IMG/VR virus record: IMGVR_UViG_3300014913_000015
Coordinates: 1 to 59,388 of that record
Length of the DNA stretch: 59,388 nt
From: a virus
Taxonomy: Duplodnaviria > Caudoviricetes
Direction: 5' to 3' (one strand)
Made by a program: the position numbers and the translations under genes. The notes beneath the pieces were generated by a model. The model worked only from the letters and a program-made list of their open reading frames with translations. It searched no databases and was not told the origin of the DNA. How positions within the stretch are numbered: the stretch's first letter is position 1; the number at the start of each line of letters is the position of its first letter. This document shows positions 5,809 through 36,566 of this stretch, in pieces.

Positions 5809-5843
5809 TAACTAATGATAATTTGTAGTCTAATTCTAATGTG

Positions 5844-5874: not shown

Positions 5875-5882
5875 CTGTAACG

Positions 5883-6530: not shown

Positions 6531-6986
6531 ATGGCTAACAAAACAAAAAGCTGGACATTTTACAGCAGACACAAGAATTTACAGATCTGGTTACGACAAC
6601 CTGAGGAGACGTATGATTCACGAGGTAAGTTGCGAGTGATTGATCCGGGAATACTCGTTGAATTTGAAGGAGGTCATTACAGCACTACTGATCCAGTAAT
6701 TGCGGAAGGGTTGATGAAGCATCCGGATTTTGGCCGTACCTTTGAATTATTTAAGGGTGAACCAGTTTCTCCAGAAGAGATGAAAGAGAACGCGCTTACT
6801 GCGATTCAGAAATCAATTGAAGCTGGGCCTCCTTCAGGAGATATAATCCCCAAGACAAAAGTAAAGAGAGTATATCGTTGTAAGGAATGTGGAGCAACTT
6901 TTACTTCTGTTTATCATTTGACAAAACACAAGAAGGAAGCTCATCCAGTTATCGCTGAGGAAAAGACTGAGAAGGTAGAAGAATAG
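6531..6986 (+). CDS. protein with C-terminal C2H2 zinc finger
   Basis: CKECGATFTSVYHLTKHKKEAH matches C-x2-C-x3-F-x5-L-x2-H-x4-H; strong AGGAGG RBS. Confidence 0.75.
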   Translation: MANKTKSWTFYSRHKNLQIWLRQPEETYDSRGKLRVIDPGILVEFEGGHYSTTDPVIAEGLMKHPDFGRTFELFKGEPVSPEEMKENALTAIQKSIEAGPPSGDIIPKTKVKRVYRCKECGATFTSVYHLTKHKKEAHPVIAEEKTEKVEE

Positions 6987-8026: not shown

Positions 8027-8707
8027 ATGAACCTAGGACAAGCAGTACAAGAAGTGCTTCGGTATATTGATTGGAATGGTAGTAATGCTGAAACTTTAGC
8101 TAAATCTTGGGTGAATCGAAGTCGAGAAGACCTAGCCACAAAATTCGACTTTCCATTCCTCTTCACAATAGCTACCGCCACCACTACTTCTTCCAATACC
8201 TATAACTTTCCAGATGATTATCTTGATCATCTCATGATTTTTATTGATGATGAGGATGGTAATCCTATTTTAATCTATGAAATGACTCCCGGTTACTGGG
8301 CTAATCTTGTAAAAGTACCTTCTCCTCTTGACCTTTCGGCAGACACCCCTCCTTACAGAGTTCTTCTTCAAGGCACTCATTTCCGTATCATTCCCGATCC
8401 TCCTTCAGGTCGCACCCTCACTCTTTGGTATTACCGTCGCCCCGAAACTCTTACGGATGATACTGATACTGATTATTTCTTGAATACTTATGGCGAAACA
8501 GTTGTATGGGGTGCTGCTTGGAGAGGAGCAGTTTATCTTGATGATGAACAGAAAATTCCCAAATTCCGTGCTGCTTATGAAGACGGGATAAAGACGATGA
8601 TCGCAAGGGAAAATAGAAAGAAGGCTGATCGAAAGGGAGTTGTGCGCTTCAAGACATGGCGTGATTTTCCGCCTGCTACTATAAGAAGAATCTTTGGAGT
8701 CTTTTGA
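8027..8707 (+). CDS. head-tail adaptor protein
   Basis: 226 aa; motifs YNFPDDY, FRIIPDP, LWYYRRP..L typical of podovirus adaptors; position. Confidence 0.7.
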   Translation: MNLGQAVQEVLRYIDWNGSNAETLAKSWVNRSREDLATKFDFPFLFTIATATTTSSNTYNFPDDYLDHLMIFIDDEDGNPILIYEMTPGYWANLVKVPSPLDLSADTPPYRVLLQGTHFRIIPDPPSGRTLTLWYYRRPETLTDDTDTDYFLNTYGETVVWGAAWRGAVYLDDEQKIPKFRAAYEDGIKTMIARENRKKADRKGVVRFKTWRDFPPATIRRIFGVF

Positions 8708-16968: not shown

Positions 16969-16996
16969 TAAAATAGTAGTGAAGGGAGATGAAAAC

Positions 16997-17119
16997 ATGA
17001 AGAAACGCTGCCCCGGTGGGAAGATACGTTCCAAAGGGTTGGGACGAGGGAAGGGGTACGGCAAGGGTAGAGGCCCCATCGGTGTTCCTTACAAATTGAA
17101 AAGGAGGTTGGCCAAGTAA
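16997..17119 (+). CDS. small Gly/Lys/Arg-rich peptide (40 aa, not in ORF track)
   Basis: MKKRCPGGKIRSKGLGRGKGYGKGRGPIGVPYKLKRRLAK; GGGAG RBS; its stop abuts the GTG of the next gene. Confidence 0.6.
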   Translation: MKKRCPGGKIRSKGLGRGKGYGKGRGPIGVPYKLKRRLAK

Positions 17120-17617
17120 GTGTTTCCTTGGCGAATAATTATAGGCCCGGCTGCTAAGCTACTTGACACAATTCTTAAACGTGTTCTACCTCCTGAAAAG
17201 GTTTCTGAGAAAGAACGTCTTGAAATTACCAAGCAATTTGAATTGGCTCTTGAGAAACAATTAAAAGAAAGTGAAGCTCAGTTCTTTGAACTTGTGAAAA
17301 CTCAGATTCAATCTGCTGTACGTACTGGACCCTTCGCCTTTTTTACTGCAATAGCTGATATGCTCCGTATGCTTGTTCGTCCAGTTGTTACATTAGCTTG
17401 GTTTGCTCTTTATGCATGGATTAAGATAAATGTTATTTCGATGATCACATCAGATGGTTTTCAAGTGACAGATGTAAAAGTGATCTTCACTCAGTATGAT
17501 GCAATAATTGGATTGGTCATTCTCTGCTTCTGGTTCGGAGATCGTGCTTTCAAGCGTGCGATTGAAGCTTTACGTGAAGGTAAACTTAAGAACATTTTTG
17601 GCTTTATGTTGAGGTGA
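17120..17617 (+). CDS. putative holin (3TM/GTA-holin-like)
   Basis: LVRPVVT and FWFGDR motifs with hydrophobic helices. Confidence 0.65.
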   Translation: MFPWRIIIGPAAKLLDTILKRVLPPEKVSEKERLEITKQFELALEKQLKESEAQFFELVKTQIQSAVRTGPFAFFTAIADMLRMLVRPVVTLAWFALYAWIKINVISMITSDGFQVTDVKVIFTQYDAIIGLVILCFWFGDRAFKRAIEALREGKLKNIFGFMLR

Positions 17618-17826
17618 TAGAGTTGCCAGCTACCTCACGAAAGCAAAGACGTCTAATGGGTATGGCATATGCTTATAAGAAAGGTAAGAGGAGACTTACT
17701 GATTTTCCTCCGTCAGTACGGGATGAGATAAAGAAGATTGCTTCTTCAATGACTCTTAAACAGTTGAGAGATTTTGCTAAAACGCCAGAGAAGAAATTAC
17801 CTGTAAAGAAGAGGAGGAAAAAGTGA
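17614..17826 (+). CDS. DUF3008-like small basic protein
   Basis: PATSRKQRRLMGMA...SMTLKQLRDFAKT pattern. Confidence 0.6.
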   Translation: MIELPATSRKQRRLMGMAYAYKKGKRRLTDFPPSVRDEIKKIASSMTLKQLRDFAKTPEKKLPVKKRRKK

Positions 17827-18200
17827 GGGGTAGAAAGGGAGTAATGTTTCCAATTCGGGAGCGTTACTTCTTTGAGTGTTTTGGGTGCCCAGATACTTCG
17901 GAAACTATCCTCCAGCGGCTCTTTGATAAAATAGTTGAGAAATCAGGTATGAAATTGCTTGCTCCTCCTCAAGCTGTAAAGGTAGATGATGGGGTTTCTA
18001 TTCAGGGAATTTGGGAAGCAAGTACGCTGGCAATACATGGATGGGATGAACCAAAATTGGTTACAATAGATATTTATTCCTGTCGCCATATAAATGCTCT
18101 TGAAATGGCAAATGTAATCAATGAGATTCTGAATCCAAAGATGATTACTTTTTCGGCTATCATGCCGAATGATATGATAACCATTCTGAGGAGGGAGTAG
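17823..18200 (+). CDS. S-adenosylmethionine decarboxylase-like (pyruvoyl) proenzyme
   Basis: GVS...EASTLAIHGWDE...IDIYSC aligns to the SpeD/SpeH consensus ESHxxIHTWPE...DxYTC. Confidence 0.65.
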   Translation: MRGRKGVMFPIRERYFFECFGCPDTSETILQRLFDKIVEKSGMKLLAPPQAVKVDDGVSIQGIWEASTLAIHGWDEPKLVTIDIYSCRHINALEMANVINEILNPKMITFSAIMPNDMITILRRE

Positions 18201-18204
18201 AGGG

Positions 18205-18675
18205 ATGGCAAGAACATCATTTGAAATTACTGAGTTTAATGATCCAGCTTTCATTGGGCTTCTACTTCCGATTTTGAAGGAAATATTTGCAAGGACGGGA
18301 ATTAATGAAATGAAGCCGGAGGATTATATTCATCAATTAGCACATGCCCTTTTTACCAATCAACCAGTGAAAATTTATACAGCTATTGAGAAAAAGACTG
18401 GGGAAGTAGGGGCAATAGCGATATTGACTGCTGGAGGATTTCCTCCGCGGGTATGGGTTGAAGTATTGGGGCAGGCAAAAAAGTTTGCTAAGCAACGTCC
18501 GGCACAAAAGTTGTATCGAAGAATGATTTCTGATATGGAAAAAAGCGGGATAAAAGAAATTTATTGTATTGTACGGAAACCTGCAGCAGCGAAACTCTTT
18601 ATGAGAGAAGCTGCTTTTCGACCAAAAGAAGTAGTTCTTATCAAACAAATAGGAGGGGTAAAAAGTGGTCGGTAG
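18205..18675 (+). CDS. putative GNAT-fold protein preceding the ejection proteins
   Basis: 156 aa with a GNAT-like pattern (KSGIKEIYC...LF...F); position similar to T7 gp13 / P22 gp14-type genes. Confidence 0.45.
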   Translation: MARTSFEITEFNDPAFIGLLLPILKEIFARTGINEMKPEDYIHQLAHALFTNQPVKIYTAIEKKTGEVGAIAILTAGGFPPRVWVEVLGQAKKFAKQRPAQKLYRRMISDMEKSGIKEIYCIVRKPAAAKLFMREAAFRPKEVVLIKQIGGVKSGR

Positions 18676-19375
18676 AAGAATGACAGGATTCTCTCCTTGG
18701 TTTTATCCTTTTTATGGAAGAGGCTTTCCATCTTGGTATCTCTGGCAATGGCTCCCCAGACATCTTCTTTATGAACTTGATTATCAAAAGCCAGAAGGAG
18801 GTCCTAATCTCTTTGGTAACATCTCTTCTCCTCCCGGTATCTGGCAATTCTGGCAACGCCTCCCTCGACATGTTCTTTTCCAGCTTCAATATGGTAGACC
18901 ACGACCAAGAATGGTATCTTCGATATCTACTGAGAATATTCCTCATCCTAGTCCCCCTTCTTCTGAAAATATCCAGCCTACTTCCAGTTCTTCTGCTAGC
19001 ACATCTCCTCCCGGTATCTGGCAATTCTGGCAACACCTCCCTCGACAGGTTCTTTTTCAATTACAGTATGGTGGAAAACGTCCTTGGCAACTTTGGCAAC
19101 ATCTGCCACGGCAGGTACTTTTTCAATTGCAATATGGTAAAGAACGTCCTACTGGAAATATATATTCTGAAGAAATTTCTTCTGAAAATATTTCTCAACT
19201 TGGTTCTGGCATCCCTTCTGAAAATATTTTCTATCCTGGATTTTCGTCAGGGAAAAAATATATAACCAGTCGCGGTGCTTCATATGCTATACCTAGAGGG
19301 ATAACTCCATCCACTTTCCGTTCGAGACGAGCGTATGGTGCAATTAGTTCAGCACTTACCCGTGGAAGATATTAA
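18665..19375 (+). CDS. repeat-containing Trp/Gln/Pro-rich protein
   Basis: four copies of a WQxWQxLPRxVLFQLQYG-like unit plus four S/T-ENI units; AGGAGG RBS. Confidence 0.6.
   Translation: MVGRRMTGFSPWFYPFYGRGFPSWYLWQWLPRHLLYELDYQKPEGGPNLFGNISSPPGIWQFWQRLPRHVLFQLQYGRPRPRMVSSISTENIPHPSPPSSENIQPTSSSSASTSPPGIWQFWQHLPRQVLFQLQYGGKRPWQLWQHLPRQVLFQLQYGKERPTGNIYSEEISSENISQLGSGIPSENIFYPGFSSGKKYITSRGASYAIPRGITPSTFRSRRAYGAISSALTRGRY
18731..19150 (+). repeat. four imperfect in-frame direct repeats
   Basis: identical 31-mer TCTCCTCCCGGTATCTGGCAATTCTGGCAAC at 18827 and 19004; more diverged copies near 18731 and 19082. Confidence 0.85.
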
Positions 19376-19386
19376 GCAGGGGGGAT

Positions 19387-20109
19387 TTGAAAATGGGTGG
19401 TGGCAAAAAAAAGACCAAGACAGTTCAAAGGGTTTATTATCCACCTGGATTTGAAAGTTTTTTCCGTCGAGCAGGTGATATTCTTCTTAAACACGCTCAG
19501 GTTCCCCGAGGCCCTACTTTTGAAATGAAACTTTCTCCTTTTGAAAAAGATATCTATGGGCGAGTATCTTCTCTTCTTTCTGCTGGCACTACTCCAGTTG
19601 ATACTCTTGTTCAAAATTACTTTTTAAATCGAATGGGGATCACTTCTCCATTATCCCGCTTGACTGGAACTTCTGTATCTGAATCGCCTCTACAAGTGCT
19701 CCCTTCTCTTAGTGAAAGTGGATTGCCAGAGTATTACGAACCCATTCCTCCTGCGATTAGTTTACCTCAATCCAAAGATAAAGAAGAGGAATGGTCCTTG
19801 CCTACCAGTTGGCAACAACTTTTTACCGTAGCGCCATTACCTAAATCGCCAAGTGATGTACTCCGAAGTCTGCAAATTGGAGCTACGGCGTTAGCTCTAA
19901 AACAACAATTCCCTGAGTTAACTACCAATGAAGCTCAAGGAATAATCAGTGATCTTCTTTCTCGATCTTATTCATACGATTATGGTTATGGATTACCAGA
20001 TAGTGTTGGTCGTTTCTTATATGGTAAAGACGAACCAATCAGACGTGCTTTCCGCATGCTTGAATCTGCTGGTTTGTTAAATATTCGTGATGTACACCCG
20101 GAGGTGTAA
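19387..20109 (+). CDS. putative internal virion / ejection protein
   Basis: MGGGKKKTKTVQ N-terminus typical of podovirus pilot proteins; position. Confidence 0.55.
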   Translation: MKMGGGKKKTKTVQRVYYPPGFESFFRRAGDILLKHAQVPRGPTFEMKLSPFEKDIYGRVSSLLSAGTTPVDTLVQNYFLNRMGITSPLSRLTGTSVSESPLQVLPSLSESGLPEYYEPIPPAISLPQSKDKEEEWSLPTSWQQLFTVAPLPKSPSDVLRSLQIGATALALKQQFPELTTNEAQGIISDLLSRSYSYDYGYGLPDSVGRFLYGKDEPIRRAFRMLESAGLLNIRDVHPEV

Positions 20110-20119
20110 ACAACTACCA

Positions 20120-21052
20120 ATGGCAAATGACCTTTTTACAAATCTTTTAGGTCCTTATCAGGAAGCTTTTCAGACAAGTGAAGCTCTGCGCTTAGGTACC
20201 CTTTCCCAGCAACTTGCCGATTGGTTAACAAGACAAAAAGCAGAAACTGGACTTGATCTTGAGCAGTTTCAAAAACTAATCGTAAGTCCAGCTCTTAAAG
20301 GAGCCCGGGACGTAGTTGAAGAAGCCCTTCGAGGGAAAGAGGAAATTGAAGAGCGATATGGAGTGCCTTTCAGACAAGCTCTCAGCCGTCTTGGAGAGGA
20401 TCTTGCGCGTGCTCAGCGCAAGCTACAATATCGGTTTGGTGCCAGAGGGATGATAGGAAGTGGACCTTGGGTCGAGGCAAGAGCTGACCTTATCCGTAGT
20501 TATATGCGCCCGCTCATTGACCAATTGTATGGTTATCGGAGAGGAATTTCAGAATGGGAGGGAACTGATGTAGAAACTCCTCTCCGGCGTCTTGCTCTCG
20601 GAATAGAAAGAGGACAGCTTGGTTTAGGTCGGATTCCAATTTCGCTTATGGAATACCGTCGTCAACTTTATTCAGTTCTTCCACAGGCTGCAGAAAGAGC
20701 CTATGGCATATTGAGTGATCTTCTGAGTCGTGCTCAGACGGAAAAACGTTACGAAGATCTTATGCGAATGACAGGCGCGGAGACACTCTATGAGATGTAT
20801 GGCACACCAGCAATACTGTCCACTCTAGGAACTCTTTACGGATTAGCTGGAGCGCCAAGAGAAGTTGAGGAAGCGAATGTAGAGGCTGCTTTGCAGGATC
20901 TATTGTATCGCCTTGGAATTATGAGTCGTATTGCAGGCGGTTTTGGACAACCAAGAATAGAGGAAAGAGTTGAAACAACTCCTTATCTTGGTCCCGCTCT
21001 CCTGAGCGGAATTCAGACAGGGATTATGTCATATCTACTTTCACAGATGTAG
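20120..21052 (+). CDS. putative internal virion / ejection protein
   Basis: helical, with an ARGMIGSG motif; ATG 20120 preferred to the ORF-track start at 20087. Confidence 0.55.
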   Translation: MANDLFTNLLGPYQEAFQTSEALRLGTLSQQLADWLTRQKAETGLDLEQFQKLIVSPALKGARDVVEEALRGKEEIEERYGVPFRQALSRLGEDLARAQRKLQYRFGARGMIGSGPWVEARADLIRSYMRPLIDQLYGYRRGISEWEGTDVETPLRRLALGIERGQLGLGRIPISLMEYRRQLYSVLPQAAERAYGILSDLLSRAQTEKRYEDLMRMTGAETLYEMYGTPAILSTLGTLYGLAGAPREVEEANVEAALQDLLYRLGIMSRIAGGFGQPRIEERVETTPYLGPALLSGIQTGIMSYLLSQM

Positions 21053-21062
21053 GTGAGGTGTA

Positions 21063-22460
21063 ATGGGTGCTGATCCTGTATCCCTTATAGTTGGAGGAAT
21101 AGTTACTCCAGCAGTAGGAGCTGCTACACAGGCTGCGTTCACTGGTGGTGGAGGTACGGTCACTACCACCGCTCAAGAACCAGCAATGGTTTCGGCAATG
21201 CGTTCTCGTGCGATTAGTGCAGCCGCTCCTATTCTACTTGATCTGCTGGAACATCCTGAACATGTAGGTTATTATACTGGTTTACAGTATCTTGTTCCTC
21301 CTCTGACTCCTGCTGAACAGACTATCTATAATATGGTCCAGAATCTTTATACTCAGGGGACTCCTTATGACATTCTTCTGGGGGAACTTTCTAAAGCAGT
21401 TCTTGAGGCAAAACCTGAAGAGTATGCCGCTCCCGCTGAAAGAGCAATAGTGATGGAGACTTTCTTTGGACCCAGCGGTCTGGGAGCTATCAGACGAGGT
21501 TTGGAAGCGCTTACAGGAGGAATTGAGTCCGAGCTTGCTCCTATAATTCAACAGATTGGAAGAACCCGTGAAGCTGCTGGAACACTTGCTCGATTGCTTG
21601 AGCAGGCAGGCGCAAGGACAGAGGAAGTGATTGGGGAACAGGCTGAAGCGATGAGGAGACAGGCTGAAGATACTTTACGCAATGCCGTTCTTGGAACTAT
21701 CCAACAATATCTCACTCCTCGTGGAAGTTTTTGGGAAAAGTTAGCTGCGCGAGGAATGGGGGAGGCTGCTGGTAAGCTTTCCGATCTTCTTGAAAGAGAA
21801 CTTGCTAATCTTCGTATTCCAGAGGTAGATGTTGAGGCAATTCTACCTCGTCTTGGAAGTAGAGAAATTGAGACTCTTGCTTCTTCTATTATGTCAGAAG
21901 AGCCGCCGAAAGGTGAAGTTGGTTCAATATTACCATTTCTCGCTTGGCAGTCACCTCTTCTCCAAAGGATGATTGGGGCAAGGAGTCTTGCTGATTATTA
22001 CAAAGATGTGTTTGCCGCTCGTCAATTTCTTGACAAAATGCAGCTTGGAGCTGCCAAGACTCTTGAGAATTTATTCGGTCTACGAGGTATGACCAAGCGT
22101 CTTGCTCAATTCGCTCCTTGGGCCGCAATCCCACGCGAAAGAGAACATAAGATGAAGACTGCTACCGAACGACTCTGGGAAAAAATAGCTGAAACTGCTA
22201 TGGGTATGATGCGGATACAGCCAGCCGGATCAACTACAACTACTAAAGGGCCTTCCTTTGGTCAGCAATTTCTCAGCCATTTCTTGCCTGGTGTTGGTAG
22301 TTACTTTACCCGTACTTTGCTTAATCAGTTGACTCCTACTCCATCTGCTCCGCTAATGACACCTGGGCAGTGGTCAAGTGGATGGGGGCAATTCAGTCAG
22401 TGGGGTTATGAGGGACCTCCTTCATATAGTTCTTCAACTCCGGGAGGTTATTTTGGCTAA
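21063..22460 (+). CDS. putative internal virion / ejection protein
   Basis: Gly/Ala-rich N-terminus, Thr-rich linkers, LAARG motif. Confidence 0.6.
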   Translation: MGADPVSLIVGGIVTPAVGAATQAAFTGGGGTVTTTAQEPAMVSAMRSRAISAAAPILLDLLEHPEHVGYYTGLQYLVPPLTPAEQTIYNMVQNLYTQGTPYDILLGELSKAVLEAKPEEYAAPAERAIVMETFFGPSGLGAIRRGLEALTGGIESELAPIIQQIGRTREAAGTLARLLEQAGARTEEVIGEQAEAMRRQAEDTLRNAVLGTIQQYLTPRGSFWEKLAARGMGEAAGKLSDLLERELANLRIPEVDVEAILPRLGSREIETLASSIMSEEPPKGEVGSILPFLAWQSPLLQRMIGARSLADYYKDVFAARQFLDKMQLGAAKTLENLFGLRGMTKRLAQFAPWAAIPREREHKMKTATERLWEKIAETAMGMMRIQPAGSTTTTKGPSFGQQFLSHFLPGVGSYFTRTLLNQLTPTPSAPLMTPGQWSSGWGQFSQWGYEGPPSYSSSTPGGYFG

Positions 22461-22480
22461 TTGAGGAGGTCGAAGAGTAG

Positions 22481-24124
22481 ATGAACCAAGGATTGATTTC
22501 TGAATTTCTAACTGGGTTCTTAATGGGAAGCAGTGAAGATCCCCTTTCAATTATGCGTTTCCTTGAAGAGAGACGTCGCCAGAATGAACAGCGACGTTTG
22601 CGTGAACTCCAAATGGCAATGGAACAAGAACGGTTGCGAATGCAGCAGGAGCGATTGCGATTAGCGGAAGAAGCAGCTAAAAGAGATGTTGCCAGCTTTT
22701 TAGCAGGTATGGGGATAAAACCAAGCGCTGTTTTGGAAGCACTTAAAAGAGGAGAATTACCTGAGCTCAAGCCTGAAGAAGTAATCTTTGGTGCAGAAAG
22801 ACCTCTTACAGAGGAACTACCTCGTTTAATGACCGAACTTCCCTATATTGAGGATATTACTGTAAAAGAGATCCCAGCTACTTTACGAGGTAAACCATAT
22901 GTTCCTTCAGAAGAGGCTTACATTTACGAACCTACACCCGCTGAAGGTGAATTTAAGCCTCCGAAAACTGAACTCAAGGCAAAAATATCTCCATATCAGA
23001 CTCCAGAGCAAACTCGACGGGCAGTACTTGCTAAACTACGCGAAATAATTCCTCGTGATAAATGGCAGTTGATTGTTACTGGGAAGACAGTTCCAACAAC
23101 TGAGGACATTGTAGAAAAATACAAAACTCTCAAAGAAGCCGCTGTTAAGATAAGTAAAGAAACAGGCACCCCTCAAATAATAGTTGAAGAGACTTTAGGT
23201 CTTCCTGTTGACCCATTTGCAAAAAAAGACATAGCTCTTGCAAATATGTACACACGACTCAAACGACTGTTTGGAGATAAATATTCTGATGATGAATTGT
23301 TAATGTATGCCTTTGCGGCTGTTTACGGTGGTGGAAAAGTACAACTTGGAAAATTGGAAGATGAAAACGTTGCAGTATCTTGGCGGACTTTTTCTCAAGG
23401 ACCATATAAAATAATGGCTCTTGTTCGCCATGACAAGAAAACTGGGAAACCTTTAGGAATGGAAATTTTTAATGTGGATTTTGATCGCAACTGGATTCAG
23501 CAACAAACGAACAACCTTTCTACTCTTGGGGCAAAAACTTCTGCTCTTGATCCTGACACAGTTGGGCGTGTTGTTGCTGAAGCTTCCAAAGTGATATGGG
23601 GGAATAAACAAATACCTCTTGGTTCACGAAACACTGCATGGTCAATGTATATCTCTACTGCTCGTCAAAAGAATCCAGCGGCTGTATGGTCTTTTCTTTA
23701 TGCTACTGTTCCAGCCCATACGGTGGTAGGGCAACATGTCAGAGCAGGATTGAAGAGATGGGCTACAAGCAATGTTCCTGATCGCTTTGCTCCCGAACAG
23801 ATAATTGGAATTCAACAAAATTTGCAAAAGCTGAGCACTTTAGTTAAAGATAAGTTTTGGGAAAATATCAATAAAATAGCTGGGATTGATGTTGAGAATT
23901 TACGGGAAAGTGATATAGTCAAGATAGCCAAGATCATTGGCAAACCAGTTGGGAAGCAAAGTTTACAGGAATATAAACAGAGAGCTCAAACGTTTCAAAC
24001 GCTCTATACGAGATTTCTCAAAAGTATTAATGAAGCACCAGAAAAGCCGGATCAGTTTGCGCAGAGTTTGAAAGACTTGATCGAATTCCTTGAGAAGGAA
24101 TTTCAAGCTTACCAAGAGCAGTAA
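22481..24124 (+). CDS. putative internal virion / ejection protein
   Basis: FLTGF followed by an Arg/Glu/Gln coiled coil at the N-terminus; 547 aa. Confidence 0.6.
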   Translation: MNQGLISEFLTGFLMGSSEDPLSIMRFLEERRRQNEQRRLRELQMAMEQERLRMQQERLRLAEEAAKRDVASFLAGMGIKPSAVLEALKRGELPELKPEEVIFGAERPLTEELPRLMTELPYIEDITVKEIPATLRGKPYVPSEEAYIYEPTPAEGEFKPPKTELKAKISPYQTPEQTRRAVLAKLREIIPRDKWQLIVTGKTVPTTEDIVEKYKTLKEAAVKISKETGTPQIIVEETLGLPVDPFAKKDIALANMYTRLKRLFGDKYSDDELLMYAFAAVYGGGKVQLGKLEDENVAVSWRTFSQGPYKIMALVRHDKKTGKPLGMEIFNVDFDRNWIQQQTNNLSTLGAKTSALDPDTVGRVVAEASKVIWGNKQIPLGSRNTAWSMYISTARQKNPAAVWSFLYATVPAHTVVGQHVRAGLKRWATSNVPDRFAPEQIIGIQQNLQKLSTLVKDKFWENINKIAGIDVENLRESDIVKIAKIIGKPVGKQSLQEYKQRAQTFQTLYTRFLKSINEAPEKPDQFAQSLKDLIEFLEKEFQAYQEQ

Positions 24125-24148: not shown

Positions 24149-27100
24149 ATGGGTAGGAAACTATCATTGTTTGATCTCCTCGATGAAGAGGAGAAGGACA
24201 CTTTGACCACACCTGAAAAGATCGCACCTCTTGCGTCTGAAACCGAAATCTTTTCTCTAATTCCTCGTTGGGAAACCAAGAAAGAACTTTCCCTTCCAAA
24301 ATCTCCTTCCGGAACAATTAGTCTTTTTGATCTCGCGGAAGAAGAACCTAAACCAGAGAAAAAAGAAGAAACTAAAAAACCGTCTGCACCGATCAGTCTC
24401 TTTGATCTTATGGAAAAAGAGATCGAGATTCCTAAAGAGCCTTTCTACAAACGTCTTCTTCGTCCACTTGAAGGCTTTTATAAAGCTATAGAAACTGCTG
24501 CTCCACGCTCCCGCGAAGATATCGAAAAGATTAAAGAAGGTCTGAAAATCGGAGTAAAACAAACTATTTTTCACACTTGGCCAGAATGGCTTACCGGTCT
24601 CCGAAAGATAGCTCCTTTTGCCCACCCTGTTCTTCTTGGCGAAACAATAGCCGCCAAGATAGCTGGAAAAGAAGAACTACTGAGACCTACTGAAAAGGTA
24701 GAGAAAGAACTCGTCCGTAAAATTGAAAAACTTGGGCCTACTGAGGAAGAAATTGAAAAGCTCAAGAAAGATCCGACGATTCGGGCATGGGCAAGGGTTG
24801 GTGGATTTGCTGCTGATATTCCCCGGATAATGGGATTAGGATATGCTTTAGGACCTCTCCTTGGTCCTCTTGCTGAAGGAGCCTCTGGAGCAACAATCTT
24901 CCTTGCTCGTCCTCTTCTTCGTCGTGTGGCTACTAATCCCAAGATGCTCCGTCTGGCGGAGCGTTTCCTGATCAAGCTTCCCCAGAGAATGGTTACCGAT
25001 ACTGCCATCTTTTCTGCTCTTTCTGCTCCTCATCCTGAAGAGATGCTTGAAGCTGCCAAGACAGGCGTCACCTTCGGCCTTCTCGCTGGTCCAGCAGGAA
25101 GAAAACTTCAGCCTATTACTACCGGTCTTGCTGCCTATATATCTGCTAAACGGGAAGGAGCAAGCGATGAGGATGCAGCTTGGGAAGCGCTTATGTTTAC
25201 TGGTTTCAACAAGTTCCTTCCTCACAGTGAATGGACAGAAGAAAATATTCTTAAGATTGGTGGGATCAAATCCAAAAAACAGCGAGCCTATATCAGAGAT
25301 GAGCTCCTGAAAGAACGACTCGGAATAGGAAAAGCCGATCCAGAAGCGAAGAAAGCTGCTGCGAATGCCTATATGCGTTGGCTTGAACACTATAGTCTTC
25401 CTCTTGAAAAGATTGCTGGACGAGCTCTTTCCCCTGAAGAGACTACTAAAGTAGTCGCTTCTCTTGAGAAATTCTTTACGGAAGAAGCGAAGAAGATAAA
25501 ACTTGATCCTCTTGATGAGGTAGTTGGGTTACTTGAAGCAAAGGCCGACCTTAAAGTCGCTCCTGCTTTACGGGAACTTGAACGTCAGGTAACGAGACAG
25601 AAGCCAGAAGATGAAGGTCTTTATTCTACTATTGCTGATCTTCATATCAAATCAGTTCTTTCTGCTGCCAGAGAGTGGAAAGAACAGATTGATCAATTAG
25701 CTCGTAAAACTGAACTTGATAAAAAAGCTGCAAAGCTCCTCCCCAAAGCAACTGCCAAACTAATCGTTGAAAAAATCCATGGTCTCCTTCCTGTCACCCA
25801 AGCAAAAGCCGACATGTCTCTCGCTGAAAGAGCTGACCGCTTAGGTGATCTCGTTAGAATTACTCTTAGAAAGAAAAAAAGCACGGTTGCAAGCGCTCTT
25901 AAAGCATTAGCCGAAAGAGCAAGAGAAGTTCATCCTGATGATAAAAAGAAACTTCTTGATTTGGAGAAGGAATACGAGAATCTTGAGAAAAAAGTCTTTG
26001 AACTTGAACAGAAGCTGATTGCAGAAACACCTGATGAACAAAAACCGGCTGTTGCTCGTCAACTTTATACACAACTTTCCAATTTTATTCGTGGAGAAGA
26101 AATCCAGCCGCTCAGTATACGCAAAATAGAGGAAATACCTGAGCCGATTCCTAAAGAAGAAGTTCCTCCAAAAGGTGTTGAAGAAATTCCTCCCGAACCC
26201 AGAGTTGAAGGAACTCATGAGGGAGTCATACCAACACCTCAGACAATTCTTGTAGAAGCTACCAAACTTATTGATCGGGTTAGCAAAGAAGCTCCTAAGA
26301 AACCAGAAATAGATGTTGATTCTATCCTTTTCAATGTAAAACCTCAAAAAGGTAAACACTTTATCTTTTTAGAGGATACAGGTGAATTTGTTGAAGTCCC
26401 CAAACCTTCCTCTATCAGAGTTCCTACTGAACACTTAAATATTGAACCCGAAGCCCTCGATCTTTTCACCTATTACAGTGGGCGTTTTGAAGGCTGGCCA
26501 ATAATCCTTGGAAAAACAGGAAGAGTTATTGATGTTGTTCCAGACCGTGCAACTGCCTTCCAACGTGCTGCTGAAATTTTTGCCAATCCTGAAAGAGTAG
26601 CGGAAATCCTTGCTCAAGCGGCAACTGATATTCGTAACGGGCAGATTTCTCCTCGCTGGAGACCAGAAGAAATAGAAACAGAACGGAGATTTTCCGATAT
26701 TATTGCAAAGCATATTCGTAATGAGGCGGAGGCAATTAAAGCTAGAATTGAGGAAGATCCTATGGCTGCTTACCTTGGTGCTTATGGAATAGCTGGAGCT
26801 GCTGCGATAGAACCTATTTCTAAAGCAGCCGTAGAAGCTAATAAATTCAGCGGAATTGGAGCTATCGCCCTTGACATTGCAAACTTCAAAGCTGCTATCA
26901 ATGATGTCTTCGGCCATCCGTTTGGAGATAAGATAATTCAGAAGATAGTTGATACTTTACGCTCCTTTGAGAAAGAACATCATGTAAGGTTCTCCCGAAT
27001 TCCTATCCGTGTAGGTGGAGACGAATTCATTGTCTTCCTCTCCGCGAGAAACGCAAAGGAAGTTGAAAACCTCGCCTCAAGTATCAAAAAGAAGGTTACC

Positions 27101-30100
27101 CAGTCCATCCAGCGTATGCTTCGCAATCAAATTCAGAAAGTGGTTAAGAAAACTGGCGAGAAACCGGTAATAGAAGAGCTTGGTGTAGAGGTTAAACCGT
27201 CAATGGTTAAAGCTGATGTCACTTCTCATTTTGTAGAAAAGGGAGTTCTTAAGAGTCCGGCTGATTTCAAAGAAGCAGTTCTTGATACAGTAATGGCGAA
27301 ACTTGACGCTTTGAAACAGGCTCGTACCGATCTTTCTCAGGAGAAGCGAAAGACGAAGATCATGAATGATAAACATGTACTTGCTGATCCTAAACCCATC
27401 CTCTTGGCGCTCCTTTCCAAGAAAGAGCTTGAAACTCCTCCAGTTGATCTTGAGAAAACCCCAGAAGGAAAGATCCGTATCAGCTACCCCGATGGTACTG
27501 TTCGTGAGCTTACTCCCGATGCTTTTATTGATGAACTGTTAGGGGCGAAACCGAAAGATAAGGAAGTCGAGATTCCAAAGCCTGAAGAGCCGGTTTCAAT
27601 CACCACTCCAAAAGATCGAGACAGGGTAAAAGACCTTGATGAGGTTCAGCTAACTGATCCTTCCAATCCTCCTCTTACTGTGGATGATCTGATTGAACCT
27701 GATCCAGCTAAAAATCGAGTGCCAGAGATTGCAATTGGCGCTGGAGGAGGAGGGTTCTTCCGTGACCATATGCCCCTTCTTGCCAGAATAATTGACGCAA
27801 CTAAGGAAACGAAACGCAAATTGAAATGGCTTTACAATCAGTTAGTTGATCCAGTTTCCCGAATGGGTGTGGCTCAGCAGGCAATTATTGAAGCTTGGCG
27901 AACAGCTCCAGAGATAACCGCTTCAGCTATCATCAAACTGGCAAACAAAGCTTTCTATACTTTGAGTACTGAAGAAAGGATTCTTTTCCGCTTAATGTAT
28001 ACGAACAAAGACCTGAGAGATCATCTGATGAGCCTTGAAGATTTTCCTCTTCCTCGCGAAGTTTGGGGGAAAACCAAAGAGCTCCGAAAATTCATTGAAT
28101 TGGCTAAAAATCTTGTTCTTCATGAAGCCCGCAAGAGGGGAATCCGAATTGCTAAATGGCCTGATAGTGCTATTAGTCGTATTTGCCAGAGAATTGCTGA
28201 GATTGACAGAATGTTACGTGAGGGAAGTGTAAGCGAAGACAAGCTTATAGAATTAGAGTTAGAACGGGATACACTTTACGAGACTATGAAGAAGCTTAAA
28301 TCAGAGGTATATTTTCCTCGGTCTTTAATTCCTACCGAAGAAGGTATTCTGGCAGCGGGGCAAATAAGTGCAATGATGTCTAAGGCAGTTAACGATGCGA
28401 TTTACAATGTCTTATCCAACGCTGAAAAACGTCTTGGTCGGCAAAAGTTGAGAGAAGTACTGGAGAACATTACATCAGTAGTTAGTGCCAAAGAATTCTT
28501 GCAAAATCTTGACAAACTTGGTGTACCGAAAGCTGATGTTGGAGTTCAGGATAAGATAATTCTTACTACTTTGATGGCCCTTGATGATATGCCCCTTCCT
28601 CCAATTGACATTTCTCCTGCATTGCGTAAACTGGGAATCCAAATGGGCAGAAGAGGCTATGCAGTGGTTCCTGTTGAATCAGTACGAGAAAAACTCCGGC
28701 TGGACAAAATCATTCCTCAGCACAAACGAAAATTCAACACGGAAGCTGAGGCAATGCTGTGGGCTCTTGAAAATGGGATGGGGTATGTGCTTGATCCTGT
28801 ATACGACCTTGCTAATTATCTACATTACATGGAAGAGCGTTTCCAGTTTCACGATGCTATTGAAGCAATGAAAAAAGCTTCAATTGAAGACCTTCGTCAA
28901 TCAGAAATACTAGCAAAGCAGATGGATTTGAAAACACCTTCTGCTATCCTTGGTTCTAACACAGTCATTCTCCCGTTGTCAGAAGCAGCTCGTCTAAAAG
29001 CTCAGTATGACATTGATCTTCGCGAACTTGGATGGAGAGAATGGGGTGGGCAGCCTCCAATTCCTAATCTAAAAGGACACTTAGTTCACCCACTCATTGA
29101 AGCTTGGTTAAAAGATGAAATGTACGTACCTTGGTTTTCTCGATATGATACTCCAGCTCCACAATGGTTAAAAAAGACAGTGCGATCAATTGACAAACTC
29201 GTTCGAGTTACCAAGATGATGCGCTTCTACATTCCTATGATAATGATTGTTAACGACCTTGGACAGATGTGGATGCTTGGTGCGGCAGGCCCAGCCTCCC
29301 TCGTCAAAGGAGCAGCCATTGATGTTCCTCTCTTGGCCTTTAGAGCTGCAAGGAAAGCAATCACGGGAAGAGGAAGCATCGTTACTGGGCAAAAGTATTA
29401 CGGTTTTCTGGGGTATCTTGCAAAGGCTATGTATGATGTAGCAGCGGAAACTGATTTGTACTTAGCGGCCAAGAAAGCAGGGCTGTTCATTTCTCCTGTA
29501 AGAGATCGGGAAGATGTTGGAAAACTGGCCGTCCATCTCCTTGAGAGGTCAAAACGGCATCCTCTTATAAAGCCATTAGTCGCTCTACGTCAAACTTATC
29601 GAACTACTGCTCCTCATCTTGGTCTCCCAATTGAGCTCCCCTTCAAGGTATTACACATGATTTATAAAGATGGTTTGCAATGGCTCACTTGGAAAGGGGA
29701 TCAAATTGCACGAATGACTGCACTGAATTGGTACCTCGATAGACGAGCAAAGATGGGAACAGATGGAAAACTATGGGTTGAGCATCCTCTTGAGTTCAAA
29801 AAGGCAGTCAATATGGTTCGCAAGTTTATGGTAAATTACCGGGGGATTCCTCAGCGTACACGAAGAACTCTCAATTTTGCCTTCCTGACTCCTACTTATC
29901 GAATCGAAGTTCTGAAACTTTATAAGGATATAGCCAAAGGTCTTGTAACCGACCCAAAAGAATGGATTGGGCCTGCTGCAAGGATCTTCACTGCAAAATC
30001 AATCGCTTTTACTGTTCGCTGGTGGTTAAGAATAGCTTTCTTGCGTATGCTGGCTCCAATAGTGGGAGCTGCTCTCAGTGGATTTGATGAAGACGACCTT

Positions 30101-30820
30101 GAGCGAATTAAAGAGAAATATCGTGACTGGAAACTCAGTGTTGATGTAAGAAAGAATTGGACGCTACAGGATTGGTATCATCTTGTACGTGAACTTCCTG
30201 GTGGTCTTGCTGAAGTTGTGGTTCTCCCCAGTCCTCTTTTTGAAATAGACAAATGGCTAGGACGTGATCCACGATACAGTCTCCGAATGTATAGCTCTGG
30301 TCCTATCCACCTAGCATGGTCACTTTTACTTAATCGTGACTGGAAAGGGGACGAAATAGTACCGCCTGCAGTGGGGCCAATTGAAGCGGCAAGTAGAGTA
30401 ACCGCTTACATTATCAGGCAGGGGTTCATTCCTTGGCTTGAGATGATCTTGCTTTCCGATCGTGATAACTGGAAATGGTGGAACTGGTTGCTTGCATCAA
30501 TGGCAATTGTGCACTACAAGGGTAAGAGCCAGAAATGGCGTTTGATCGCTGCTTACAGACGAGCTGAATGGGAGCTCATGCGCTATAGAGCCAAAGCAAT
30601 GCAGTCAGGCGATCCGAAGGATCTCCAGAGGTATTTAAAGATGAAACAGAGATTGATAAAATTAAAACAGAATACAGTCAAAGCTCTTTTGAGACAGGAG
30701 TCACCACGGTTGATTGACCAATTAATCAACTCATACGGAAAGATCTTTGGAGTGGGTAAGGAGACTTACGAGACATGGCTGTACTGGGATATAAACAACT
30801 TTTTGCGGGGTGAGTATTAA
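24149..30820 (+). CDS. giant internal virion (ejectosome/polyvalent) protein with an embedded GGDEF domain
   Basis: 2223 aa; last and largest of the ejection cluster; contains DIANFKAAINDVFGHPFGD...RVGGDEF (about aa 909-960). Confidence 0.75.
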   Translation: MGRKLSLFDLLDEEEKDTLTTPEKIAPLASETEIFSLIPRWETKKELSLPKSPSGTISLFDLAEEEPKPEKKEETKKPSAPISLFDLMEKEIEIPKEPFYKRLLRPLEGFYKAIETAAPRSREDIEKIKEGLKIGVKQTIFHTWPEWLTGLRKIAPFAHPVLLGETIAAKIAGKEELLRPTEKVEKELVRKIEKLGPTEEEIEKLKKDPTIRAWARVGGFAADIPRIMGLGYALGPLLGPLAEGASGATIFLARPLLRRVATNPKMLRLAERFLIKLPQRMVTDTAIFSALSAPHPEEMLEAAKTGVTFGLLAGPAGRKLQPITTGLAAYISAKREGASDEDAAWEALMFTGFNKFLPHSEWTEENILKIGGIKSKKQRAYIRDELLKERLGIGKADPEAKKAAANAYMRWLEHYSLPLEKIAGRALSPEETTKVVASLEKFFTEEAKKIKLDPLDEVVGLLEAKADLKVAPALRELERQVTRQKPEDEGLYSTIADLHIKSVLSAAREWKEQIDQLARKTELDKKAAKLLPKATAKLIVEKIHGLLPVTQAKADMSLAERADRLGDLVRITLRKKKSTVASALKALAERAREVHPDDKKKLLDLEKEYENLEKKVFELEQKLIAETPDEQKPAVARQLYTQLSNFIRGEEIQPLSIRKIEEIPEPIPKEEVPPKGVEEIPPEPRVEGTHEGVIPTPQTILVEATKLIDRVSKEAPKKPEIDVDSILFNVKPQKGKHFIFLEDTGEFVEVPKPSSIRVPTEHLNIEPEALDLFTYYSGRFEGWPIILGKTGRVIDVVPDRATAFQRAAEIFANPERVAEILAQAATDIRNGQISPRWRPEEIETERRFSDIIAKHIRNEAEAIKARIEEDPMAAYLGAYGIAGAAAIEPISKAAVEANKFSGIGAIALDIANFKAAINDVFGHPFGDKIIQKIVDTLRSFEKEHHVRFSRIPIRVGGDEFIVFLSARNAKEVENLASSIKKKVTQSIQRMLRNQIQKVVKKTGEKPVIEELGVEVKPSMVKADVTSHFVEKGVLKSPADFKEAVLDTVMAKLDALKQARTDLSQEKRKTKIMNDKHVLADPKPILLALLSKKELETPPVDLEKTPEGKIRISYPDGTVRELTPDAFIDELLGAKPKDKEVEIPKPEEPVSITTPKDRDRVKDLDEVQLTDPSNPPLTVDDLIEPDPAKNRVPEIAIGAGGGGFFRDHMPLLARIIDATKETKRKLKWLYNQLVDPVSRMGVAQQAIIEAWRTAPEITASAIIKLANKAFYTLSTEERILFRLMYTNKDLRDHLMSLEDFPLPREVWGKTKELRKFIELAKNLVLHEARKRGIRIAKWPDSAISRICQRIAEIDRMLREGSVSEDKLIELELERDTLYETMKKLKSEVYFPRSLIPTEEGILAAGQISAMMSKAVNDAIYNVLSNAEKRLGRQKLREVLENITSVVSAKEFLQNLDKLGVPKADVGVQDKIILTTLMALDDMPLPPIDISPALRKLGIQMGRRGYAVVPVESVREKLRLDKIIPQHKRKFNTEAEAMLWALENGMGYVLDPVYDLANYLHYMEERFQFHDAIEAMKKASIEDLRQSEILAKQMDLKTPSAILGSNTVILPLSEAARLKAQYDIDLRELGWREWGGQPPIPNLKGHLVHPLIEAWLKDEMYVPWFSRYDTPAPQWLKKTVRSIDKLVRVTKMMRFYIPMIMIVNDLGQMWMLGAAGPASLVKGAAIDVPLLAFRAARKAITGRGSIVTGQKYYGFLGYLAKAMYDVAAETDLYLAAKKAGLFISPVRDREDVGKLAVHLLERSKRHPLIKPLVALRQTYRTTAPHLGLPIELPFKVLHMIYKDGLQWLTWKGDQIARMTALNWYLDRRAKMGTDGKLWVEHPLEFKKAVNMVRKFMVNYRGIPQRTRRTLNFAFLTPTYRIEVLKLYKDIAKGLVTDPKEWIGPAARIFTAKSIAFTVRWWLRIAFLRMLAPIVGAALSGFDEDDLERIKEKYRDWKLSVDVRKNWTLQDWYHLVRELPGGLAEVVVLPSPLFEIDKWLGRDPRYSLRMYSSGPIHLAWSLLLNRDWKGDEIVPPAVGPIEAASRVTAYIIRQGFIPWLEMILLSDRDNWKWWNWLLASMAIVHYKGKSQKWRLIAAYRRAEWELMRYRAKAMQSGDPKDLQRYLKMKQRLIKLKQNTVKALLRQESPRLIDQLINSYGKIFGVGKETYETWLYWDINNFLRGEY

Positions 30821-31602
30821 TGTCATACGTTAAATCACTCGTCGCAGGGTTAATCTTCTTTACCTTCATTATCGCTTGGTGGCCACACTATGAACCAATC
30901 TACCGTTATACCAATGAAATAAGTGATGCCACTGTTGATATCTATCTTGCTTTCAGTGGCCATGCAGGTGGAGCAGAGGATGGATGGCCTATCAGTTCAG
31001 TCACTTATGGGCAAGGAATAGCAATCGCGCCTACCTATGTCTTGACTGCTAAACACGTTGTGACCCCTCCTGATAAAATGTTCCTACTTGGAGTGCCTAT
31101 CCCAATAACTTCTGAGAAGAAGGAAATTTTCGTCTTGTCGCGTATTGCAGATAAACATGGCTATTATCAATGGATCTCAGCTTCCGTAGTATGGACTGCC
31201 GAGAAGGATGATCTAGCTATCATTCATTTGGAAAAACCTGTTGCTCATTACTGGAAAGGAATAAGCGAAATTGACGTATATGACAAAATCTATTTTGTTA
31301 CCAGTTGGGGAACCCATAGAGGATATCTTGCAGATGGAAAAGTTATTGGAAGAGGTTTCTGCCCGTTCAAAGCGGAACGGGACATGGGTGCTTTTCCTAT
31401 TATCAAAGATGACAAAGAATTTTGTAAAGATAACCTTCTGGTTATGGATATGATCGCGATGCCGGGTGAATCAGGATCAGCAGTACTCAATCGTCATGGG
31501 CAGATTGTAGCTATTGTTTCTATCCGTTGGAAATATGTAGTGTGTGTTCCAGTTATAGAATATAAAGAGATTATTGAGAACTATGCAGCTTACACGGAGT
31601 AG
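30820..31602 (+). CDS. trypsin-like (S1) serine protease with N-terminal membrane anchor
   Basis: catalytic triad motifs LTAKHV, DDLA, PGESGS. Confidence 0.8.
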   Translation: MSYVKSLVAGLIFFTFIIAWWPHYEPIYRYTNEISDATVDIYLAFSGHAGGAEDGWPISSVTYGQGIAIAPTYVLTAKHVVTPPDKMFLLGVPIPITSEKKEIFVLSRIADKHGYYQWISASVVWTAEKDDLAIIHLEKPVAHYWKGISEIDVYDKIYFVTSWGTHRGYLADGKVIGRGFCPFKAERDMGAFPIIKDDKEFCKDNLLVMDMIAMPGESGSAVLNRHGQIVAIVSIRWKYVVCVPVIEYKEIIENYAAYTE

Positions 31603-31978
31603 AGTAGACTGGAATCAGATAAGACATTTTCGACAAGATGAATGGGGAAGATGGGAGTTTGTCGATCCCCGTCTTATCTATATGATGGATCAATTACGAG
31701 AAGAGATCGGTGCTCCGATTATCATTCATGAAGCTTATGCTACTTCAGGGCATGCGAAGAACTCATATCATTACATTGGAAAAGCAGTTGATTTCCATAT
31801 CAAGACTAAAAAATCATTCCGTACTCAACTAGCAGTAATTATGAGAATTGGATTCACAGGAATTGGATTTTATCCTTGGTGGGAACATCCTGGATGGCAT
31901 GTTGATATTCGCCCTGCATTTAAAACTCAGCTTTGGGTTTCTCCAGAAAAAGGAGTCTACAAATACCTCATGCCTTAG
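31583..31978 (+). CDS. endolysin, peptidase M15 family
   Basis: SYHYIGKAVDF and WHVDIR zinc-ligand motifs; ATG at 31583. Confidence 0.8.
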   Translation: MQLTRSRVDWNQIRHFRQDEWGRWEFVDPRLIYMMDQLREEIGAPIIIHEAYATSGHAKNSYHYIGKAVDFHIKTKKSFRTQLAVIMRIGFTGIGFYPWWEHPGWHVDIRPAFKTQLWVSPEKGVYKYLMP

Positions 31979-35649: not shown

Positions 35650-35940
35650 TCAGCCCCCTCCAATACCAACCGGATTGGGAATGCAAAACAACATTCCTAC
35701 AGATATCAGTACCGCCAATATACCAATGAATCCAGTTATCATTAGAAAGCGACCGAAAAAGGTATCTTCCCCATGCTTGTCAGTATACTTAACGGAATAA
35801 TCAAACAAATATCCACCGCCAAAAAATACGATAAGAATAACCCACCAAGGGAGACGGCGAAGGAAAACAGTATAAACTACTGTCAACACGCCTATTGTCG
35901 GGCCTACTACAAAAGGGATTAAATACAAAAGCGTTCTCAT
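35650..35940 (-). CDS. membrane protein (3 TM)
   Basis: hydrophobic segments; ATGA coupling with the upstream gene. Confidence 0.55.
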   Translation of the reverse strand: MRTLLYLIPFVVGPTIGVLTVVYTVFLRRLPWWVILIVFFGGGYLFDYSVKYTDKHGEDTFFGRFLMITGFIGILAVLISVGMLFCIPNPVGIGGG

Positions 35941-36566
35941 TTCTTCTCCTCCACAATAGATTTTGGTTGTGGTTTCGGTAAACTGGTCTGTCCTAAAAGG
36001 ACAACAAGCTCGCCAATGTTTAACAAAATATCTTTTACATACGCAGTATTCTTCCCTCCAACGTATTTCCGTAAAGCCTTGGGTAGATCGTTATTTGCTT
36101 CCTTCAGACATGTTAAGAAGACGAAATAAGTACAGCGCACATTTATCACTGGATCGTAAAGATCTCTTACTTCTCGAATTAGGCCATTACGTTTCAATTT
36201 ATCAGCCCAAAATTTAGGATGAATCTGCCCCAACCCAATCGCTCCTGCCTTAGAGCGTACAAATGGATTGAAAGAACTTTCACGAGCTATTAAGGCCAAA
36301 AGAATGATAGGATATTCTGTCTTAAAACATTCTTGGGCGATCTCCTGAGCCATTGAACGCGGTAAACGAGTTGATTTTTTCATCATCCAGTCAATTACCT
36401 TAGAGGGAACAGTCACTTCCGTTTGAACAACTGTTGAAGGAACAGCAGAAGGAGTGACTTGTAAGGATTGTATAAACACGATGAATCCTATTACAATCAT
36501 TCCTATAACAATACCTGTTATAATTATGAACCACGGAGACAATATTGTAGTTCTTGGTTTCCTCAT
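35937..36566 (-). CDS. membrane-anchored lytic transglycosylase (SLT)
   Basis: RESSFNP..S.AGAIGLGQI and LYDPVIN motifs; N-terminal TM helix. Confidence 0.85.
   Translation of the reverse strand: MRKPRTTILSPWFIIITGIVIGMIVIGFIVFIQSLQVTPSAVPSTVVQTEVTVPSKVIDWMMKKSTRLPRSMAQEIAQECFKTEYPIILLALIARESSFNPFVRSKAGAIGLGQIHPKFWADKLKRNGLIREVRDLYDPVINVRCTYFVFLTCLKEANNDLPKALRKYVGGKNTAYVKDILLNIGELVVLLGQTSLPKPQPKSIVEEKK

Follow-up and report, generated by a model that had tools for sequence, protein, structure and literature searches.

A stalk-helix and GGDEF module within the giant late-gene protein of a metagenomic phage

What is a GGDEF domain, the kind of domain found in bacterial diguanylate cyclases, doing in the middle of a giant phage protein? 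The question is raised by the IMG/VR record IMGVR_UViG_3300014913_000015 (Caudoviricetes), a linear sequence of 59,388 bases with a CheckV completeness of about 69% that was analysed over its whole length and is called the window in the following. It encodes a protein of 2223 amino acids (aa), P0002, whose open reading frame (ORF) closes the virion or late module on the plus strand and is its largest gene. A first-pass annotation of this DNA had described a GGDEF domain lacking the I-site within the protein, and had proposed that the phage may inject a feedback-insensitive cyclic-dinucleotide synthase at infection. The fold proved genuine, with its residues kept and no I-site, but the idea of injecting such a cyclase is not new (PMC5512222). 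Amino acids 838-1057 are a self-contained module of a stalk helix and a GGDEF domain like that of bacterial diguanylate cyclases, and the main uncertainties are its activity, owing to four unusual changes, and the packaging of the protein.

That aa ~867-1060 adopt a true GGDEF fold is virtually certain. All the motif strings quoted in the first-pass annotation, including RVGGDEFIV, are found in the protein, and the GGDEF motif lies exactly at nucleotides (nt) 27014-27028, that is aa 956-960. The first half of the signature is present as well but had been placed two codons off, the string 'ALDIANFK...' beginning at nt 26867 and nt 26873 corresponding to the Asp D909. A hidden Markov model (HMM) search with PF00990 gave a match over aa 901-997 (E 1.5e-13, 51.2 bits against a cut-off of 23.8), the NCBIfam model TIGR00254 scored 53.8 bits against a cut-off of 37.4, and this was the sole GGDEF match in a six-frame search of the record. 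In parallel, 44 distinct PDB sequences matched at E<=0.01, and almost every one of them is named as a diguanylate cyclase or a GGDEF-domain protein. Among 1.84 billion representative sequences, the best relatives of the domain are 24-50% identical to it (best E 9e-14), and none was found at E 1e-30.

Because the HMMs align with the middle of the domain only, aa 830-1075 were modelled with AlphaFold2. The input consisted of 28 sequences, namely the query and 27 others that were all the hits shorter than 400 aa among the 150 best listed. A GGDEF fold was obtained, with a predicted local distance difference test (pLDDT) of 80.1 and a predicted template modelling score (pTM) of 0.72. Foldseek returned 75 PDB matches of this model at E<=1e-3, the top rows being almost all diguanylate cyclases or GGDEF domains. 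In the same way, VIA-align superposed model residues 38-231 on the GGDEF domain of Dcsbis (4zmm_B) with a Z score of 14.5 and a root-mean-square deviation of 3.0 Å over 155 of 161 residues. As far as the model goes, the parts of the fold that lie outside the Pfam match are present, but diverged.

The catalytic residues were compared with those of PleD, onto which they were mapped through the HMMER alignment, the PleD numbering being that of PMC7288161 and PMC12943098. For the column counts, the domains of the 150 best representatives were cut out and aligned with the query. The comparison bears out the earlier statement that the metal-binding Asp, the Lys, the Asn/Asp pair and GGDEF are retained. 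D909 corresponds to the metal Asp D327 of PleD and is shared by 147 of the 150 relatives, K914 to the transition-state Lys K332 (145 relatives), N918 and D927 to the guanine-binding N335 and D344 (150 and 148), and R954, the Arg before the motif, to R366 (150). F913, D919 and H923 are the majority residues of their columns (143, 138 and 147 relatives). Within the motif, G956 and G957 are found in 150 and 149 relatives and E959 and F960 in 149 and 146, while the column of D958 holds Asp in 105 and Glu in 45, the motif of PleD being GGEEF. The roles of the kept residues in catalysis and guanine binding are set out in passages of PMC7288161 and PMC12943098. Since the signature residues survive such a high divergence of the sequence, selection on the active site is suggested. 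The Hypr enzymes that make cyclic GMP-AMP (cGAMP) are described in PMC7288161 as having a Ser in place of the guanine-binding Asp, and D927 is here an Asp. From its sequence, the domain is probably an active nucleotide cyclase.

The absence of the I-site was confirmed. The four residues aligned with the RAID of PleD, at the position of RxxD, which in product-inhibited cyclases lies five residues ahead of GGDEF, read RFSR; in the column of R950, 99 of the 150 relatives have Asp, and the six commonest residues do not include Arg. The second I-site Arg of PleD, R390, is matched by S978, at a column where 67 of the 150 relatives have Arg. Judged by these alignments, both I-site elements are absent from the domain.

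In the AlphaFold2 model a helix of 30 residues runs straight into the GGDEF domain. Structurally it lines up with the stalk helices of 6ttr and 3i5c, coiled-coil-plus-GGDEF constructs that are among the best-matching structures. A two-copy prediction that included guanosine triphosphate (GTP) and Mg scored 0.55 (runs 0.56, 0.55 and 0.41), the best of three controls reaching 0.00; in the calibration, 20 of 30 proteins solved as one-chain pairs reached this score, against 1 of 23 single-chain structures. The contacts agree between the homodimer runs to at least 81%, the pLDDT of the partner is at least 81, and the interface is formed by the stalk helix (model residues 12-39) together with residues 42-72. 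The prediction thus supports dimerisation of the domain through the helix that precedes it. The first-pass annotation had suggested that oligomerisation of the ejected protein could bring two domains together; the pairing itself is predicted, but via the domain's own helix, so that oligomerisation of the whole giant protein is not required. Bacterial cyclases with a stalk helix, such as DgcB of Caulobacter (6ttr), GCN4-WspR (3i5c), Dcsbis (4zmm) and PleD, have the same fold and signature, with a helix that runs into the domain and pairs two subunits, as is predicted for the phage protein. Unlike them, the phage domain lacks a sensor or receiver domain as well as the I-site, and it lies between two long non-signalling regions; moreover, the second Asp of its DxD is an Ala, its phosphate loop is longer by one residue and its NRR turn is lost.

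The boundaries of the module are set by comparison with P0006 (2364 aa, locus L003), the sole full-length close relative of the giant protein. In blastp, residues 67-678 of P0002 align with 149-744 of P0006, 694-837 with 1013-1162 and 1058-2217 with 1194-2354, the last of these segments, of 1160 aa, being 48% identical. Between the second and the third segment lies the block of helix and GGDEF domain (Table 1). Elsewhere P0006 has about 270 residues more than P0002. It contains no Pfam family, and a local GGDEF HMM run over the six frames of L003 (26.6 kb of a 53.7-kb contig) and of locus L002 detected none (best E 0.72). Two distant relatives, P0007 (2088 aa) and P0008 (1284 aa), share the C-terminal core alone. 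P0007 has an unrelated middle region of its own, with a RadC hit of 23.5 bits against a cut-off of 22.1 and, at aa ~945-962, the motif HNHPSG, which we take to be of RadC/JAB type. None of P0006, P0007 and P0008 matched a PHROG. With GGDEF found in one of four full-length family members, the block appears from these alignments to be optional cargo in the variable middle of the giant protein, and both an insertion and a deletion could account for the difference.

Further copies were searched for in several collections. Giant proteins with this domain (1222-3891 aa) were only bacterial PAS/EAL/GGDEF proteins. A tblastn search with the domain against 50,697 phage records matched nine, none at 80% coverage, and a search of the same records with the whole protein matched four, all through the GGDEF part only. 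Two records named 'UNVERIFIED Bacteriophage sp.' (L004, MT835480.1, and L005, MT835498.1) were set aside as phage copies of the domain, the matching stretches looking bacterial: they encode HAMP-PAS-GGDEF and TPR-GGDEF proteins amid PilZ, ParA-like, CCA-adding-enzyme and kinase genes. Scans of IMG/VR gave no relative of the protein; scans of species genomes gave none either, hence no prophage copy and no indication of a host. A profile of the C-terminal core matched only two fragments, 89% and 74% identical.

GGDEF is the sole domain of the giant protein recognised by Pfam, PHROGs and NCBIfam, and Pfam found in it no zincin peptidase, methylase, helicase or ART domain. In the ESM Atlas, the N-terminal 837 aa had weak neighbours only, in unnamed viral clusters (0.91, recognition 2028). 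The C-terminal 1124 aa lie closest to viral clusters, among them one in which 63% of 51 members carry LPD38 (score 0.96, 178 shared features) and a second in which 28% of 103 members carry LPD39. An AlphaFold2 model of the C-terminal 724 aa, built from 6 sequences, was unusable (pLDDT 43, pTM 0.28). At the N-terminus, the motif [LI]SLFDL occurs three times, at aa 5-10, 58-63 and 83-88 (nt 24161-24412), with an acidic stretch after every copy. The repeats are missing from the 48%-identical ortholog P0006 and resemble what we presume to be the bacterial sliding-clamp-binding motif, QL[SD]LF. A 58-aa ATG ORF lies in the +1 frame at 27366-27542, just after the GGDEF domain; it has no equivalent in L003, and a sequence look-up gave no look-alike.

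GGDEF domains are already known from the polyvalent proteins of phages, which were defined by Iyer, Burroughs, Anand, de Souza and Aravind in 2017 (PMC5512222). Passages of that study report that GGDEF domains occur in polyvalent proteins while being 'not very widespread', give a giant prophage protein of Acetonema longum as an example, predict that polyvalent proteins enter the cell along with the DNA and employ cyclic-nucleotide signals, and propose an interference with host nucleotide signalling upon delivery. The present protein is like these in that GGDEF is found within a giant protein encoded among late or virion genes. It differs from the A. longum example, which is described there with at least nine domains, whereas GGDEF is here the only recognisable enzymatic one; the lineage of those phages is also different from the almost unsampled one of the window. 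This kind of fusion has been known computationally since 2017, and the window adds a new example from an unsampled lineage. In a full-text literature search, no experiment turned up that tests a GGDEF domain carried in virions or in polyvalent proteins.

Other viral GGDEF proteins are organised differently. A Foldseek search of BFVD gave seven viral proteins with the GGDEF fold at E<=1e-3, mostly small and stand-alone, one of the seven being a segment of a longer unnamed protein. Gp350 of Bacillus phage G, the 'diguanylate cyclase' of SP-15 and the protein of Bordetella phage CN1 are separate GGDEF proteins of 146-460 aa and not parts of a giant protein.

The giant protein is encoded by an uncultured and very sparsely sampled podophage that is SU10-like on sequence comparison. 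Its portal is just 20-24% identical to those of cultured podophages, and BLASTP of 14 SU10 proteins against the window found a partner for the SLT protein gp20 only, so that its relationship to the SU10 type is very distant. The giant gene shares its strand and its block with the genes for portal, capsid, adaptor and fibre. In podophages, late proteins of very large size are generally internal to the virion (N4, T7, SU10). Five of the six ORFs upstream of the giant gene are, like the giant gene itself, syntenic with L003 at 29-55% identity in blastp; these six gave no Pfam, PHROG or NCBIfam match naming a function, with one Pfam hit below the cut-off. The layout resembles that of SU10 (Kuravirus), in which the genes gp20-24, following the tail genes and the tail needle, likewise have their largest member, gp24 (1473 aa), in last place, just before a strand switch and an early region that bears a sigma factor. 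In the SU10 paper, gp20-24 are described as present in virions and as proteins that the genome-release intermediate lacks. No Pfam domain is found in gp24, and gp19-24 together have only SLT and DUF6453 in Pfam. From the position of its gene, packaging of the giant protein in the head and its injection are, on balance, slightly favoured.

Put together, these elements suggest the following course. The giant protein would be made late, packed in the head alongside what the upstream genes encode, as the position of the genes suggests, and expelled into the cell with the DNA. Two copies would then pair through the stalk helix, and the paired GGDEF domains, given their retained residues, would condense two GTP into cyclic di-GMP (c-di-GMP). 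In the absence of the I-site there would be no product inhibition, and c-di-GMP might rise from the first minutes of infection. Possible gains for the phage include motility arrest, a change of the surface or of the receptor, effects on the cell cycle and interference with nucleotide-based defence. Typical diguanylate cyclases form about one product per second, and at this turnover a few injected dimers would bring a cell of 1 fL to micromolar c-di-GMP within minutes; a real effect from the amounts carried by virions is therefore not excluded by the numbers. As a whole (packed, injected, paired, active and uninhibited), the chain is plausible but falls somewhat short of being probable. More tentative is the wider proposal that an injected, feedback-free cyclase floods the cell before phage gene expression and that the middle of the giant protein is an exchangeable cargo slot in a modular platform of injected effectors. 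The slot would hold GGDEF here, the RadC/JAB peptidase motif in P0007 and other inserts in P0006.

Known phage systems offer partial parallels. If the injected-cyclase reading is right, the virion RNA polymerase of N4 and DarB of P1 are alike in being enzymes made in advance and injected before phage gene expression, as outlined in PMC5512222; they belong to other enzyme classes and share no homology with the giant protein, and the target of a GGDEF domain would be a small-molecule signal, not DNA or RNA. De Smet et al. 2021 (PMC8085984) report that the YIP peptide of PB1-like Pseudomonas phages raises c-di-GMP through the host YfiN during lytic infection, and motility arrest, superinfection exclusion and cell-cycle effects are discussed in the same article. 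YIP is a small early peptide that activates a host cyclase, whereas the phage of the window would bring its own.

A number of observations weigh against the reading of an injected, active cyclase. The PF00990 match spans just profile positions 31-121 of 161, and no second sequence of this domain was present in any collection searched. The predicted homodimer resembles solved cyclase dimers, which the model may recall, and its prediction was run with a custom alignment and with ligands, unlike the calibration. Activity is uncertain because of changes in four near-universal features. The position of A911 is taken by Asp in 138 of the 150 relatives and by Asn in 10, without any Ala in the column counts; A915 is one extra residue between K914 and N918, where 148 of the relatives have a gap; R1059 falls at a column with Lys in 140 of them, in a part where the MAFFT alignment is weak; and the N-terminal DxLTGLxNRR turn is replaced and reads DPMAAYLGAY. 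For the pair K442/R446 in the C-terminal helix of PleD, R1059 is at the Lys column and the equivalent of the Arg is ambiguous within the basic stretch RTDLSQEKRKTK, the alignment being weak there too. With such changes the domain could be catalytically dead or very weak and serve as a GTP-binding, dimerising or structural module, for example as a sensor of a GTP-containing cytoplasm. GTP sensing and other activities are indeed described for degenerate GGDEF domains in PMC7288161 and PMC12943098, and the stalk dimer is predicted irrespective of catalysis. Nevertheless, known degenerate domains typically diverge in GG[DE]EF itself, according to PMC7288161, and this motif is intact here, as are the metal Asp, the Lys, the Asn, the Asp and the Arg despite an overall identity of about 30%. 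In addition, none of the changed positions figures in those parts of PMC7288161 and PMC12943098 that list residues as essential. A loss of most or all activity is considered rather unlikely. It is also conceivable that the palm makes another product, such as cGAMP, cyclic di-AMP, a linear dinucleotide or a decoy nucleotide. Other nucleotides are reportedly made by Hypr GGDEF enzymes and by minimal CRISPR polymerases, and the Panoptes papers also bear on palms of this type. PMC7288161 states that GGDEF and Cas10-type palms can do so, and the phosphate-loop insertion together with A911 could change the chemistry. Yet both guanine-binding residues, N918 and D927, are kept, the matches shown by sequence, fold and family are overwhelmingly canonical diguanylate cyclases or GGDEF domains, and no PADLOC defence model matched the giant protein, and a different product is improbable.

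Packaging meets objections of its own. SU10 gp24 and the giant protein have no similarity (hhalign probability 0.4%, best BLASTP E 3.3), the giant protein outside its GGDEF part matches no PHROG virion family, and P0002 has no hydrophobic segment at threshold. The HMMs of LPD38 and LPD39 (PF18857 and PF18858) gave no direct match in the window, so that the link to these domains remains a lead. The nearest ortholog is without the GGDEF domain, which must then be dispensable for the core role of the protein. The cyclase might accordingly be active in a protein that is not injected, acting late in the producing cell or outside the virion altogether. Such an arrangement would agree with the lack of similarity to known ejection proteins and of a transmembrane segment, with packaging being read from gene position, and with the existence of small stand-alone phage GGDEF proteins in BFVD. 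The gene nevertheless closes the virion module, as gp24 does in SU10, very large late podophage proteins are usually internal to the virion, and in the Atlas the neighbouring viral clusters carry polyvalent-protein domains; a cyclase that stays behind is held to be unlikely. Finally, bacterial GGDEF DNA could have been joined into a phage contig during assembly, as might be feared of a single metagenomic contig whose domain has no close relative anywhere. The block, on the contrary, is in frame at both ends within the 6.7-kb ORF, and its G+C content is typical of the gene. The same holds at third codon positions (GC3), with 0.341 in the block and a gene mean of 0.337 (standard deviation 0.047), which indicates that the block was not imported recently. 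Depth in all 30 bins of the gene came from contigs of two sediment-metagenome runs that belong to two studies; one of the runs may be the source of the window. The right junction 27319/27320 is spanned by two contigs, and 17 differences in 224 nt mark one of these as a distinct strain. Reading frame, composition and junction-crossing contigs make a chimera highly improbable.

The surroundings of the giant gene are listed in Table 1. The window has a G+C content of 41.5% and no tRNA genes. The plus-strand module also contains fibre and nozzle-like genes (Pfam and PHROG), and the minus-strand half encodes replication and recombination genes together with the sigma-70-like factor (Pfam). A scan for promoters and terminators gave counts not above those of shuffled sequences, and no RNA run was among the sequencing runs listed for the record. 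In the trypsin-like peptidase encoded after the giant protein, the N-terminus bears a hydrophobic anchor and the His/Asp/Ser motifs are plausible. As a processor of the giant protein it was downgraded: its anchor and its adjacency to the M15 endolysin suggest that it may belong to lysis, and neither peptidase gene is found at the equivalent place in L003. Between the fibre genes and those of the putative internal proteins lie an ATP-grasp enzyme and an S-adenosylmethionine decarboxylase (14728-18200), both conserved in L003; the L003 ortholog of the former, the GARS-like protein, has 744 aa and is 60% identical, and the LAGLIDADG_3 match inside the window protein may be an intein.

Table 1. 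Positions in the window of the features discussed
Feature	Position (nt)	Strand	Details
Virion module	630-31978	+	plus-strand half
SU10-type portal	630-2456	+	
SU10-type major capsid protein	4633-5808	+	
LAGLIDADG_2 endonuclease ORF	5841-6500		directly after the capsid gene
C2H2-type zinc finger ORF	6531-6986		zf-C2H2_6, E 1e-6; between capsid-side genes; unusual for a phage
SU10-type adaptor	8027-8707	+	
GARS-like ATP-grasp protein	14728-16968		LAGLIDADG_3 match inside, aa 490-542
Six ORFs upstream of the giant gene	18205..24124	+	candidate internal or ejection proteins, by position only
Giant ORF P0002	24149-30820	+	2223 aa; ORF list and translation
Indel (insertion/deletion) block, helix and GGDEF	26660..27319	+	aa 838-1057; 220 aa, 660 nt; about 30 aa there in the ortholog P0006
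Amphipathic helix	26663..26752	+	aa 839-868; directly before the domain; model helix 10-39
Complete GGDEF fold	26747..27328	+	aa ~867-1060; VIA-align, Pfam, NCBIfam
Active-site half 1	26873..26929	+	D909, A911, K914, extra A915, N918, D927; PleD alignment
RFSR	26987..26998	+	aa 947-950; in place of RxxD
R954-V-GGDEF	27008..27028	+	aa 954-960; catalytic signature loop
Trypsin-like peptidase	30820-31602	+	start overlaps the stop of the giant gene (TAATG)
M15 peptidase (endolysin-like)	31574-31978	+	after the trypsin-like peptidase
SLT transglycosylase	35937-36566	-	32% identity to SU10 ejection protein gp20; outside the virion module
Sigma-70-like factor	51563-52147	-	among early/middle genes, as SU10 gp32

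The copy described here is of interest as a clean cargo of helix plus domain, with both I-site elements gone, delimited by an indel against its ortholog and coming from an unsampled lineage. It is also a compact object for testing, since it is a block of 220 residues whose boundaries are set by the indel and whose assays no I-site would complicate. The nearest relative does without the domain, and this status as optional cargo is more in keeping with an accessory role related to conflict than with a structural role. If the module is active and injected, phages would deliver a second-messenger synthase as a virion protein, and c-di-GMP, the main switch of bacteria between motile and sessile life, would be controlled from the first seconds of infection.

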